Assembly: GCA_964016885.1 (NCBI GenBank)
Contig: OZ024746.1
Span: 41,540,001-41,604,000 of the forward strand
Reading direction: 5' to 3'
Source of the DNA: Eledone cirrhosa
Lineage: Eukaryota
DNA: 64,000 bases
Shown here one piece after another: positions 1,719 to 6,644 of the stretch. The notes under the pieces were generated by a model. It did not search any database. It worked only from the letters and a program-made list of their open reading frames with translations, and was not told the origin of the DNA. The position numbers and the translations under genes are program-made. How positions within the stretch are numbered: the first letter of the stretch is position 1; every line of letters starts with the position of its first letter.

Positions 1719-1840
1719 TCCACTGATGATTTATAAGTGCCCACCTACATATATTCCTACGGACTATGTGTAGGCTTCTACATAACCTGGACATTATTTT
1801 CCCAATTTGTAGAAAACTTATAATGAAACGATCGTTTGGA
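1719..1840 (+). ncRNA. Type I hammerhead ribozyme, family A (branched stem II), in a ~310-bp insert at 1710-2020
   Basis: tcca-CTGATGA(1723)-t-ttataagt...acttataa-t-GAAA(1825)-cgatcg-TT-tgga; internal hairpins cctacatata/tatgtgtagg and ttctaca/tgtagaa. Confidence 0.85.
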
Positions 1841-2059
1841 AAGAGAGATGTATTTTAATTATGTCTCATATAAAATAATACAACTGGCTATCTGCAAAAT
1901 ATGTATAGTTAGCACCCCAAACGTATAACTGGGATTATACTAAGGTATATCCTAATGTTTGTTGAGTGAGATGGAAGCCGGTCGGAGTATTGCTTAAAGC
2001 TTTCTCTGTTAATGTATTAAATATATATATATATATATATATATATATATATATATATA

Positions 2060-2120
2060 TATTGTTATATTTGGGGATGGTCATGTTGCCAATATTGCCA
2101 ATAGAACGAAACACATGCAA
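2060..2120 (-). mobile_element. Short 3' fragment of the family seen at 44829-45393 and 47295-47473
   Basis: ttgttatatttggggatggtcatgttgccaata...aaacacatgca matches 44830-44876. Confidence 0.55.
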
Positions 2121-2379
2121 CATATAATTTTAACTTTATCACATTACAGAAGAAAGCTCAAATCATTTGTCTGTTTTACATCTGAAAAGAGAGTAATATC
2201 CCCGAAATATCATGGTATAATACACTGGCTAAAATATTGCTTTAATTTGTTTTCTTTTGTTTCATTTACCATCATTTGCCCTTCATATTTTCTATGACAT
2301 TGTACCAACTTTTAAAAAACTTATTGCTCATTTACTACATATCTCACAATGCTATTAACTACACTACTCTATATACACA

Positions 2380-2510
2380 CATATATACATACATACATAC
2401 ATACATATATATATATATATATATATATATATATATATATATATATATATATATATATATATATATATATATATATATATATATATATATATATATATAT
2501 ACATATATAT
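2380..2510. repeat. (TA)n microsatellite, representative of dozens in the window
   Basis: Direct reading. Confidence 0.98.
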
Positions 2511-3324
2511 GGAAGTATGCATATGTGTGTGTTTGCATACACATATACATACATTGTTCACTTATATCTTAATATTAAGTTATATAACCCTGAAACCTGT
2601 TCATTGTGTACTCAAGTAGCATTTTTGCTTGAAGATGCATTCCTTATGTATTTTGAGAAATAATTAGATCAGTGCTTTATCTAGGTATAGCTGAAAATAT
2701 ATTTATTTAGTTGTCATTCTGTAGTGACTAGTCAGCATCAAATTTGAGGAATTGGTAATTCACAAGTTTTCACAATTTGTTTATGCTATGTAACTTACTC
2801 ATCTTTTTCCATTTCTCCGAGGGTTCTTAACCCCACTATCAGGCTAAATAATTTCTTTAATTTCTTTAGTCAAAATACGGCGATAGCTTACATTTATAAT
2901 AATAATAATATATATATGTATATATATACATACCATGTATATATATATATATTAAATAAATTAAAACTCACTTATATTTTTCTGGTTGACATTCCTTCAG
3001 GTTCCACATCTTGAATCTAGAGCAGTTGCAGAAAGACATTTCGTATTCTGATATAACAAATATTATTATATTATGTATCTTTTTGTTTTGCTCAGTTAAG
3101 TCTTCGTAATATATTAAGTTATATACTATCATATATGTATATCTATCTATCTATCTATCTAAATATGCATACACATCCATACACAAGGAAGTGTATATAA
3201 ATATATATACATTCGTACCTACTCACATACACACACAATATATATATATCCAGGAGTTACTGTAGGTTCATATATATATGTATAGGAAGGCTCCTTAGAA
3301 TTTGTTGACAGCTTTTATTACCTA

Positions 3325-4372
3325 GATGATCAAATTAGCACAGTGGGGTAGGATGCATTGAATGTGTGATAGCTAGGATAAGAACAGGCTGGAAAAAGTT
3401 TAGAGGGCTGATACTACTGCTGGCAACAAAGGGCCTTTCTCTCAGAGTGAAGGGTAGATTGTATGATGCATGTGTGCAAACTGCAATATTACATGGAAGT
3501 GACATATAGGCTTTGATTGCAGAAGACCTGTGAAGGCTAGAAATGCTCCAAAGGATGTGTAATGTTAATGAGCATGAGCGACATAGCATAAGCAAACTGA
3601 GGAAAAATCTTGGCATAAAAGGAAAATTGGATGCAGTGTGCGAGAGAGAAGACTATGCTGGTATGGATATATGATGCATATGGGAAATAGCAGTTGCATG
3701 AAAAATGCAGAGAAACCCCAGTGGCTGGGAACCATGGATGAGGCAGACCCATGAATACAAGATGAGGTTGCGAAGATTGACCTTAAAAACTAAGCCTCAC
3801 AACAGAGATGACAATGAACCGTGACACCTGGCACTATTCTGTGTTGGTGAAGACCCAGCCAACAGCATACAATATGACCTTACTTAACCCCATATCCCCA
3901 TTTCCCCTAGTGCTCCCCATCAGCTATCCTCATCAGCATTCACGCCTTAGTTACTGCCCCCTCTAAAGCCCTTAGATACCCTCACTATCACACCCTAGTA
4001 GCTACTCTTTGATTTAAAAAGAGTTGAAATGATCTTTCAGTTGTGCCACAGCATGACAACCTCTCTAGTGCTGGTGATTTACATGATACATGCACCAAGT
4101 ACTTACTGTAAAGTGGTTTGTAATAGAAAGAGCATCCAGCTGTAGAAAATTTGCCAAAGGATTGGGAGGACCTTTTAGTTTTGTCAAAGACATGACAACC
4201 TTTCTTGTGGACTCAGTAGTATGTGAAACCATATATAAGTAAAATGCAGACCTCATGGCCTGTCTAGGAGGTCAGTAGTTCCACTTTAGTAATGACTTGG
4301 TCTGTGTTGACCCATCCAACCCTTGCTAGCAGGGGAAATGGACGTTAAACAAGGATGATGATGATAATGATA
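3325..4372 (+). mobile_element. Degenerate RTE-clade LINE 3' portion with 3' UTR and (ATG)n tail
   Basis: Similar to the RTE at 35230-36190 (R.GWKKF, RLYDACV.TA.LHGS); ends ggacgttaaacaaggatgatgatgat. Confidence 0.85.
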
Positions 4373-5157
4373 TAATACAATGTGTTGATGTAAGCGCCAT
4401 ACTTACAGCAAATCCATGCCTATGCTGAAGCAATTCCTGCACTGAAGTGTGGGCATGAAATTTGAGTTTGTTTTCATACCAAGAAACATATAAACTAGAG
4501 GTAAAATATCATAAGTTTAATCATAATTTTAAGATATGCAATATGCTCAAAATATTTCATCACTTTTCTTTCCCCCTCTCTCTCGAAAATAATATTGTAT
4601 TGAAAATACACACAATTGTTCTGCAGGATAAAAGTACAATGAATAAGCTACTCTCAAATCCGGTCAGTAAACACTGCACAAACAATACCAGCCTTAAATT
4701 GATGTAATACAGACCCAAATCAAATATGATAAGAAATACATGAATATAGCAAGAACTTTAAATTAGATATCCCCTAGAGTAAAGTCATATCTTACTATCT
4801 TACATTGAATTCTAAATTAGGAATGGTTGGTTTAAAGATGAAGCAGGCTACTCTACTGAATAAATAAATTGATTCATTACCTAAGGACATATCTGCAAAT
4901 TTATTGAGAAAGTAAAATGTAACTTTGTGTGATATTCATGCCTTTTGCAATGGCACAAGTGGTGTAAACTAGATCTGAGTTATGGAACTGAGTCCCCACA
5001 GTCAGTATAAGAACATTAGATCACTAATATTAGTAATTTTACAATTTAAATAATTTCTCTCTCTCTCTCTCTCTCTCTCTCCTTTGGCAAATTTTCTACA
5101 GCTGGATGCTCTTTCTATTACAAACCACTTTACAGTAAGTACTTGGTGCATGTATAG

Positions 5158-5291
5158 ATTATTTCTGAAGACAGCATATATATGTGTAGGTATGTATATT
5201 CCCTCTGATAGTTTGTAAAAATTTTACATAGATCTATATGATATACATACCAACACACACATATATATCCTAGAAACGATCGTAAAATGAT
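5158..5291 (+). ncRNA. Type I hammerhead, family C (long stem II), in a short insert at 5158-5348
   Basis: attattt-CTGAAGA(5165)...GAAA(5273)-cgatcg-TA-aaatgat; stem II helices atatatatgtgt/acacatatatat and ggtatgtatat/atatacatacc; homolog at 16963. Confidence 0.85.
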
Positions 5292-5368
5292 GAATTTTTT
5301 AATATAAGGAACTGTTTTTTTGTTTTTATTCATTATTTTTATTAATTTATATATATATATATATATAA

Positions 5369-6644
5369 TTAATACAATAACAGAAATAGTCTAAAGCTAA
5401 ACTCTGACTGGTAACCATCTCACTCAACAAACATTAGGTTATATTAAAATATAAACCCAATTTAAGTGTTTGGGGTGCTAACAATATGTATAATGTGGAA
5501 AAACCAGTTGTATTATTTTATGAGATATAATTAAAGTTAAAGTATATCTCTCTTTCCAAACAATTGTTTCATTATAAGTTTTCTACAAGTTTGGGAGAAT
5601 GTTTCCAGTTTATGTAGAAGCCTAATATATATATTCATGTAAGAGTATATTTAGGTGGGCACTTATAAATCATCAGTGGAAGCCCATTAAACATTGATAT
5701 AAGAAAACAATTTCTTACCGCTGTCAAAAATCATGTCCGTAAAGTCGCTCTCTCACCTCGAATGACCGCCAAATTTGAAATTCCAGCAGTTTTTGACTGA
5801 GGAAGTATCATAGCGACACGAAGCGGGAAGGGGAGACAACCCACGATCCACGAAATGAGAAAAAAAAAAAAATAATAATATACACGTGGGTTAATTAGTT
5901 TTTTTGAAAACATTATCAATCCAACGTGTTTAAGAACTCAATTGAAAATAAAAAAATAAATATATGCTTCTATAAATTACACACGCATATAGATATTTTC
6001 TTAGGCTAAATCAGAAGTTGTACCCGAATAAGAACCGCTTCTCATAACCGCAGTAAATGCAGAAAGTTATGTTATATAGGGCAAATGGGAATATAATTCT
6101 CCGGCCGAATTATTAAGAGTAAAATATAAAACACACGCGGGTTAATTAGTTATTTCAAAACCAATATTAATTCCTCGTGTAAAGAACTCAATTAATAAAA
6201 GAAAATAATTACATATATGCATGTAATTATATACGTAGGCATATGTATATATATCTTCCTAGGCTAAAAAACAGAGAAGTTACAACCAAAAAAAAGCCAC
6301 AATATTTCACAACAGTAATAAATATGGAAAGTCAAATTCAAAAGGTACCTGGAAATAAACACCTCTGGCCAATCAAGAGTAAATATTTAATACAATAACA
6401 GAGATAGTTTAAAGCTAAACTCTGACTGGTAACCATCTCACTCAACAAACATTAGGTTATATTAAAATATAAACCCAATTTAAGTGTTTGGGGTGCTAAC
6501 AATATGTATAATGTGGAAAAACCAGTTGTATTATTTTATGAGATATAATTAAAGTTAAAGTATATCTCTCTTTCCAAACAATTGTTTCATTATAAGTTTT
6601 CTACAAGTTTGGGAGAATGTTTCCAGTTTATGTAGAAGCCTAAT
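5369..6644 (-). mobile_element. Non-coding family A element, partial tandem (1018-bp monomer plus 258-bp terminal direct repeat)
   Basis: 5369-5626 is repeated almost identically at 6387-6644 (offset 1018); no credible ORF; internal degenerate ~250-bp duplication at about 5880 and 6132; 3' end matches the 1710-2020 copy. Confidence 0.8.
5554..5681 (-). ncRNA. Type I hammerhead, family A
   Basis: Minus strand: ttcca-CTGATGA-t-ttataagt...acttataa-t-GAAA-caattg-TT-tggaa. Confidence 0.85.

Follow-up and report, generated by a model that had tools for sequence, protein, structure and literature searches.

A branched, probably selected stem II domain in a repeated hammerhead motif of Eledone cirrhosa, and its possible pairing with the 5' flank

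The stretch of DNA analysed here (the window; 64,000 nucleotides of Eledone cirrhosa, assembly GCA_964016885.1, contig OZ024746.1, positions 41,540,001 to 41,604,000 of the forward strand) lies in a 3.0-Gb, AT-rich animal genome and contains two hammerhead ribozyme motifs with a large insert in stem II, copy 1 on the forward strand and copy 2 on the reverse strand (Table 1). In copy 1 the insert between CUGAUGA (1723-1729) and GAAA (1825-1828) is 95 nt long; the core of copy 2 begins at 5676 and its insert is 99 nt, in line with the spacing of about 95 nt given by a first-pass annotation made from the sequence alone. Folded alone, each insert forms an 8-bp base helix and two hairpins, the architecture which that annotation had proposed, with stability z-scores of -5.62 (copy 1) and -4.31 (copy 2); none of 200 shuffled sequences was as stable. 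A third hammerhead, a 5'-truncated half, lies one unit upstream of copy 2 and in tandem with it. The DNA separating copy 1 from copy 2 is unrelated sequence, and the two copies are independent insertions of two subfamilies (A1 and A2) of one repeat, which we call family A.

Table 1. Features of the window (positions in the window; PLE, Penelope-like element; ORF, open reading frame).
Position	Strand	Feature	Evidence or remark
1706..2029	+	Family A monomer (subfamily A1), truncated on its 5' side and finishing in a (TA)n run	96.9% identity to the L027 tandem unit; flanks
1714..1717	+	GGGC of the 5' flank, predicted partner of the junction strand (pseudoknot or alternative hairpin)	98.8% of cells paired, zero double changes
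1719..1722	+	Stem I 5' strand, partner 1837-1840	U-A to C-G double change in 6/21 representatives
1723..1729	+	Catalytic core CUGAUGA	Sequence; 0 parsimony changes in 10 core columns, 17 subfamilies
1730..1738	+	Stem II 5' strand; 1730 is position 10.1 (U.U with 1824); 8 bp with 1816-1823	
1739..1743	+	Junction strand GCCCA, single-stranded	Folding, covariation alignment
1744..1774	+	Insert hairpin 1, with 4 well-conserved bp at its base and variation above them	Double change in 5/10 pairs, 90% of cells paired
1776..1814	+	Hairpin 2, made up of a 7-bp stem, a 6x6 internal loop and an inner helix of 3 bp	100% of cells paired; one double change per helix
1816..1824	+	Stem II 3' strand	
1825..1840	+	GAAA, the stem III palindrome, GUU triplet with cleavage predicted 3' of 1836, stem I 3' strand	No hairpin within one molecule; self-duplex at -13.6 kcal/mol
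1841..2029	+	Conserved tail to the fixed 3' end; putative PLE protein recognition site	
5362..6655	-	Subfamily A2 array, about 1.3 units	
5555..5685	-	Second complete hammerhead; hairpin 1 5621-5655, hairpin 2 5581-5619, predicted cleavage 3' of 5559	
about 6573..6642	-	Hammerhead half truncated on its 5' side, running from hairpin 2 to the cleavage site and without CUGAUGA	
19084-19203, 17606-17725	+, -	Family B hammerhead, 91-nt stem II insert, inverted pair	
20008-20054	+	Short minimal hammerhead, 20-nt stem II, palindromic stem III	Unpaired nucleotide between 9 and 10.1 present
12206-12754, 42569-43603	+	PLE-like ORF fragments	
37086-37583, 39867-40379	-	PLE-like ORF fragments	
32128-33140		458-nt inverted repeat with two ORF pieces	
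39720-40364, 43298-43942		645-nt inverted repeat	
45736-46480		23-bp tandem repeat array	

Three helices surround the core and stem I is open, which is the type I topology. The cleavage triplet is GUU in the window copies and GUA or GUC in other subfamilies, and CUGANGA and GAAA are unchanged across 17 subfamilies. Family A also has the short stem I, the helix II of 7-8 bp and the palindromic stem III of the minimal hammerheads of PLEs (PMC4209133). Another trait of the minimal motif, the unpaired nucleotide between 9 and 10.1, is absent from most family A subfamilies. Self-cleavage at the GUU site is predicted from the motif. Rfam returned no match in the window at the gathering score, and for seven loci searched with E values up to 5 no hammerhead family was among the best 150 of 172 matches. 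A large ribozyme population here thus escapes Rfam, so hammerheads in such animals are probably undercounted.

The stem III palindrome forms no hairpin alone. As a 12-bp self-duplex it reaches -13.6 or -10.0 kcal/mol in the two subfamilies of the window, and a duplex between these subfamilies only -5.5 kcal/mol, so that dimer cleavage favouring like partners is predicted. The palindrome persists through sequence change, as the first-pass annotation had remarked; its suggestion that CpG decay would suffice as the cause fell, because a non-CpG route, CGGCCG, also keeps the palindrome.

Family A is a high-copy repeat. First-look searches with the copies gave 2,132 and 1,260 candidates, many of them 98-100% identical. 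Contigs of two runs, X1 and X4, also contain the repeat (1,829 and 18, respectively), which carries no information on its expression. One family A pattern had 2,037 matches in the genome against none for its reversed control, a second had 1,027 against none and a third 720 against 24 (72 of the 100 matches listed for the third were family A by eye); over these partly overlapping patterns, copies with an intact core number roughly 3,500. The 3' end is fixed (a (TA)n run follows the predicted cleavage site at 180-199 nt in 131 of 188 cases), the 5' side is variably truncated and the targets are AT-rich. Tandem units are spaced at 682-767 and 989-1,009 bp, and the longest ATG-initiated ORF in four tandem units examined is 31-48 amino acids. 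With its fixed 3' end, 5' truncation and tandem ORF-poor units, the repeat fits a non-autonomous PLE or a non-LTR (long terminal repeat) retrozyme. Some arrays combine subfamilies with different stem III palindromes (L189:1488-3050, L014:744-1641 and L211), which suggests insertion beside earlier copies or template switching. Neither a survey of upstream ORFs nor a search with a profile of the tail found an autonomous partner: a sense PLE-like ORF lies within 1.2 kb upstream of 8 of 174 family A copies, at scattered distances and of different kinds, compared with 11 of 27 matches to a second hammerhead family, B, and the tail profile had no match to family B or to a third family, J. Upstream of the A1 hammerhead (L027:1410-1505) are candidate promoter motifs that resemble the E2F/CHR, initiator and DRE consensus elements. 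A1 and A2 also have GTAAG, which resembles a splice donor, about 45 nt upstream of the core; this candidate was dropped, as it is not kept in the L189 subfamilies.

The pairing in the insert was analysed in 193 unique copies (290 loci gave 226 profile matches and 220 usable full-length copies), comprising 18 subfamilies of at least two copies (171 copies) and 22 singletons. This sample is biased towards top-similarity matches, the first pattern matches in order on contig C1 and ten hand-picked variants; the tree tests used 17 subfamilies, the excluded one having a tail majority of unrelated DNA. Unconstrained RNAalifold on 21 subfamily representatives recovered stems I, II and III, both hairpins and the 3-bp inner helix, with double changes in 10 of 34 pairs. 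In our structure 95.8% of 818 cells are paired, against 33-49% in slid controls; 11 pairs are changed on both sides, a number reached by six of 500 shuffles, and there are 56 double-change cells against 18.8 in shuffled alignments, with no shuffle of 500 reaching 56. The double changes comprise U-A/C-G in stem I; A-U/G-C in stem II, with U-A/G-U/A-U at the stem end; C-G/U-A and G-C/A-U in lower hairpin 1; and U-A/C-G in hairpin 2, with A-U/U-A in its inner helix. For hairpins 1 and 2 taken together, 274 of 289 cells are paired among the 17 subfamily majorities and six pairs show at least two Watson-Crick types; a re-pairing null that keeps the tree gives p = 2e-4 for the insert, and a site-rate simulation gives p = 3e-4 for pairing and 0.023 for pair types. 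Private changes in the stems of single copies broke pairing 25 times and kept it 14 times. Parsimony steps per column are 0 in the core, 0.21 in hairpin 2, 0.5 in stem II, 0.86 in the tail and 2.42 in upper hairpin 1. Collecting genomic copies for covariation was among the checks that the first-pass annotation had proposed, and the tests that keep the tree speak for selection on pairing in the insert. We consider it very probable that the branched stem II structure is real and selected.

Some details read differently once the whole family is compared. Hairpin 1 is present, with a span of 1744-1774 in place of 1746-1774. Its C-G to A-U swap between the window copies, which had been offered as a compensatory change, is real as an outcome and is not a change within the same columns: a U was inserted as a bulge (L248), a C-to-A change captured this U and left the old G bulged (L237), and the displaced G then changed (L037). 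The swap pair is in fact the worst of the insert, unpaired in nine of 21 representatives. The idea of a selected accessory domain thus holds on the family-wide covariation and on the topology of another family, G (see below), and not on the pair cited for it. Hairpin 2 had been called invariant; its outer stem is identical in the window copies and carries compensatory changes elsewhere in family A. A role for the insert as a reverse transcriptase (RT) binding site is without direct support: the fixed 3' end points to the tail, as does the only PLE examined in vitro, in which RT starts downstream of the hammerhead (PMC11167929). The allosteric switch, its other suggestion, is kept as a rival reading (see below). 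The statement that short stem II hairpins are typical of PLE hammerheads also needs qualifying, since their helix II, at 7-8 bp, is longer than usual (PMC4209133). Moreover, at least 12 of the families sampled in the E. cirrhosa genome have stem II inserts of 35-99 nt, which makes an enlarged stem II a habit of the whole lineage and not a one-off graft.

Family G shares its form with family A. A pattern that excluded the family A palindromes had 1,158 matches, mostly family G, against 31 for its control. The family G consensus consists of a 7-bp stem II, a 6-nt linker and two hairpins, the first of 8 bp, the second containing a 6x6 loop as well as a 3-bp inner helix; this is the topology of family A with little sequence similarity, and double changes occur in five of 33 pairs. 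The consensus pairs the 5' flank with the core and has no stem I. Because the family G tail is weakly similar to the family A tail profile (best score 11.1 bits, with shuffles at most 2.5), the two families are probably distant relatives. Inserts in other families measure 13-14 nt, 27-30 nt, about 50 nt (an internal loop and a hairpin) or 82-97 nt. Families M (L351-L362, L380, L388), D (L322-L345) and O (L377, L385, L386) are abundant and have inserts of about 50 nt, in which a strand of the internal loop complements the 5' flank of stem I.

A similar complementarity, absent from the first-pass annotation, exists in family A: GGGC, just 5' of stem I, complements GCCC (1739-1742) of the junction. 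Over 12 families with inserts of at least 35 nt, flank-to-linker complementarity scores 8.62, where permutation between families gives 7.02 +/- 0.52 (p = 0.003), and in families A, M and O it is clearly above all three controls. At one pseudoknot position in family M (n = 17) the pairs are U-A in eight cases, U.G in two, C-G in seven and C.A in none. We give about even credence to a model in which the stem II junction braces stems I and II by a pseudoknot in a ribozyme that acts as a dimer, the brace being its main job. Tandem units would be transcribed, two stem III palindromes would pair, each core would cut after GUH to release unit-length RNA, and a PLE protein would reverse-transcribe this RNA from its tail into AT-rich DNA (PMC4209133, PMC6765202, PMC11167929). 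The three-way junction would hold GCCC at the position of loop II, where its pairing with GGGC of the 5' flank would be a Watson-Crick form of the tertiary contact that stem I makes with stem II. Pseudoknots that brace these stems speed hammerheads by orders of magnitude (PMC3088659), and in type III hammerheads a GCCR internal-loop strand pairs with YGGC (PMC7936874).

A number of results weigh against this bracing model or soften the evidence behind it. The GGGC/GCCC helix is paired in 98.8% of cells with no double change in the 21 representatives, and no compensatory subfamily emerged when double-change patterns at two of its pairs were searched genome-wide (one and eight scattered copies; five of the eight pair). 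In the L086 family the complementarity exceeds its controls by a narrow margin (11 against 10), families D and G do not surpass the far-flank control, and six families, B and J among them, lack it; the covariation in family M is a single switch on the tree. The pseudoknot idea itself arose after five of the 12 families had been viewed, and the families may be related. Within the insert, further pair types are within the shuffle range (445 of 500), the pair types of hairpin 1 taken by itself are not significant in the site-rate simulation (p = 0.09), and the structure was taken from the same sequences on which it was tested, so that the covariation tests lean towards it. The G10.1-C11.1 pair expected of the motif is missing from both window copies, which have U.U, and the 21 representatives have G-C in seven cases, A-U in three and an unpaired position in ten; U.U at this position has functional precedent (PMC3088659, PMC7229834). 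The contact also looks strained with a stem II of 8-9 bp and a stem I of 4 bp unless one pair frays, a judgement that is a geometric estimate of ours.

Local folding without pseudoknots bears on both the brace and its closest competitor. It gives GGGC/GCCC a probability of 0.91-0.94 and hairpins 1 and 2 more than 0.9, with stem II at 0.03-0.08 and stem I below 0.1, both displaced by GGGC/GCCC; such displacement would fit an off-state equally well. The helix would then be an off-switch that forms first during transcription and blocks stem II, so that the ribozyme would be inactive until refolded by a partner copy or by the PLE protein, while the two hairpins fold by themselves and store the 3' arm of stem II. 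The flank hairpin that sequesters the core in the family G consensus points the same way, as does the anole PLE hammerhead, which cleaves only with its own protein and whose uncleaved RNA is the insertion substrate (PMC11167929). The low probability of stem II may nevertheless be an artefact of the algorithm, because GGGC/GCCC and stem II are topologically compatible as a pseudoknot, and stem II pairing is kept with double changes; on this evidence we think an off-switch unlikely.

Two further rivals are weaker. Hairpin 2 with its 6x6 loop might be a platform for the PLE RT/endonuclease or for a host chaperone, as the slow change of its stem (compared with the tail and upper hairpin 1) and the recurrence of the 6x6 geometry in family G would allow. 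Yet the loop sequence differs between A and G, many abundant families in this genome lack hairpin 2, no autonomous partner was found in the searches above, and both the fixed 3' end and the RT start downstream of the hammerhead (PMC11167929) point to the tail; a protein platform is doubtful. Finally, the insert could be tolerated baggage, an old loop II insertion kept paired only against misfolding of the core, with some of the apparent compensation coming from template-switch repair of hairpins. The free range of stem II inserts, from 13-nt hairpins to rods and junctions, the long rod of family B, the weak fold of family J and the hypervariable upper hairpin 1 are all compatible with this. 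We regard it as the most improbable of the explanations considered: there is no deletion subfamily among the 193 copies, in which deletions are singletons (the sample being partly selected by insert length), the long-range stems I and II covary as well, and A and G share their topology despite sequence turnover.

The class of element is already described; the branched stem II architecture of its ribozyme seems to be new, and neither a natural PLE hammerhead with such a branch nor the likely pseudoknot was found described in the main-text passages searched. Hammerhead variants with additional helices have been reported (PMC13725137, citing three works). Family A resembles the minimal type I hammerheads of PLEs (Cervera and de la Pena 2014, PMC4209133) in its type I topology, a stem I of 4-5 bp, a helix II of 7-8 bp, a palindromic stem III implying dimer cleavage, and thousands of dispersed copies in sequence families. 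With non-LTR retrozymes (PMC7229834; bioRxiv 10.64898/2026.07.22.740005) it shares tandem, ORF-less, AT-rich units with a type I hammerhead in each, a predominance of monomers and short arrays, and the proposed status of non-autonomous PLE derivative; it differs in that its units of 682-1,009 bp are at the top of the reported range of 51-972 bp and that its ribozyme is PLE-type and not canonical. A Watson-Crick helix that joins stems I and II is found in pseudoknotted hammerheads (PMC3088659) and in the type III hammerheads of toad and termite HDV (hepatitis delta virus)-like agents (PMC7936874), the latter also having, below an additional hairpin, an internal loop whose GCCR strand pairs with YGGC. 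Unlike in these, the extension in family A is on stem II, takes the form of a two-hairpin branch and has as its partner the 5' flank, which is open in this type I motif.

Engineered stem II aptazymes likewise bear a folded domain on this stem, from where it could gate catalysis; the family A domain differs in being natural and having no known ligand, and gating by it is conjecture. A broader proposal is that the Penelope-type dimer hammerheads of this lineage acquired a stem II module, be it an internal loop, a rod or a three-way junction, which through a pseudoknot with the 5' flank restores the tertiary contact thought to be missing in PLE ribozymes, the same helix serving as a switch gated by a protein or a partner copy. 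This seems unlikely to us as a whole; if true, it would be a natural stem II allosteric hammerhead, present in thousands of copies and missed by standard searches. What PLE hammerheads do has been described as unknown (PMC7761336, 10.1101/2021.04.23.441226), and in vitro they show low activity. Family A offers a young high-copy family with a peripheral domain under selection, and its 4-bp helix, with compensatory rescue, is a precise prediction that would separate a brace from a switch.

Other hammerheads are common in the genome. Family B makes up most of 3,550 pattern matches and at other loci is often found downstream of an ORF for a PLE-like endonuclease; it was considered as a second three-way junction and rejected, as it folds as a long rod. 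In family J, two hammerheads 3,650 bp apart enclose PLE-like RT and endonuclease ORF pieces (L227:1064-4865, reverse strand); its consensus fold is weak, with double changes in none of 16 pairs. A UUGAAG in the family J flank is a possible partner of a junction strand midway along the insert, an observation made post hoc and by eye. Two looser patterns gave 16,511 and 29,513 matches (controls 1,119 and 3,996), which are not ribozyme counts because they include LINE (long interspersed nuclear element) coding sequence and simple tandem repeats; by eye, these make up about a third of the matches listed for the 16,511-match pattern.

Of six PLE-like ORF pieces, Pfam names one, 37086-37583 of the window, as GIY-YIG; the PLE labels of the others are provisional, based on characteristic motifs and mutual similarity. 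The ORF pieces of the 458-nt inverted repeat resemble, by motif, the N-terminus of a mariner transposase. Adjoining the A2 array, at about 5160-5290 on the forward strand, is a possible decayed hammerhead of another family (CUGAAGA ... GAAA, a palindrome and GUA), seen by eye; a similar stretch, also noted by eye, follows a family A copy in L022.

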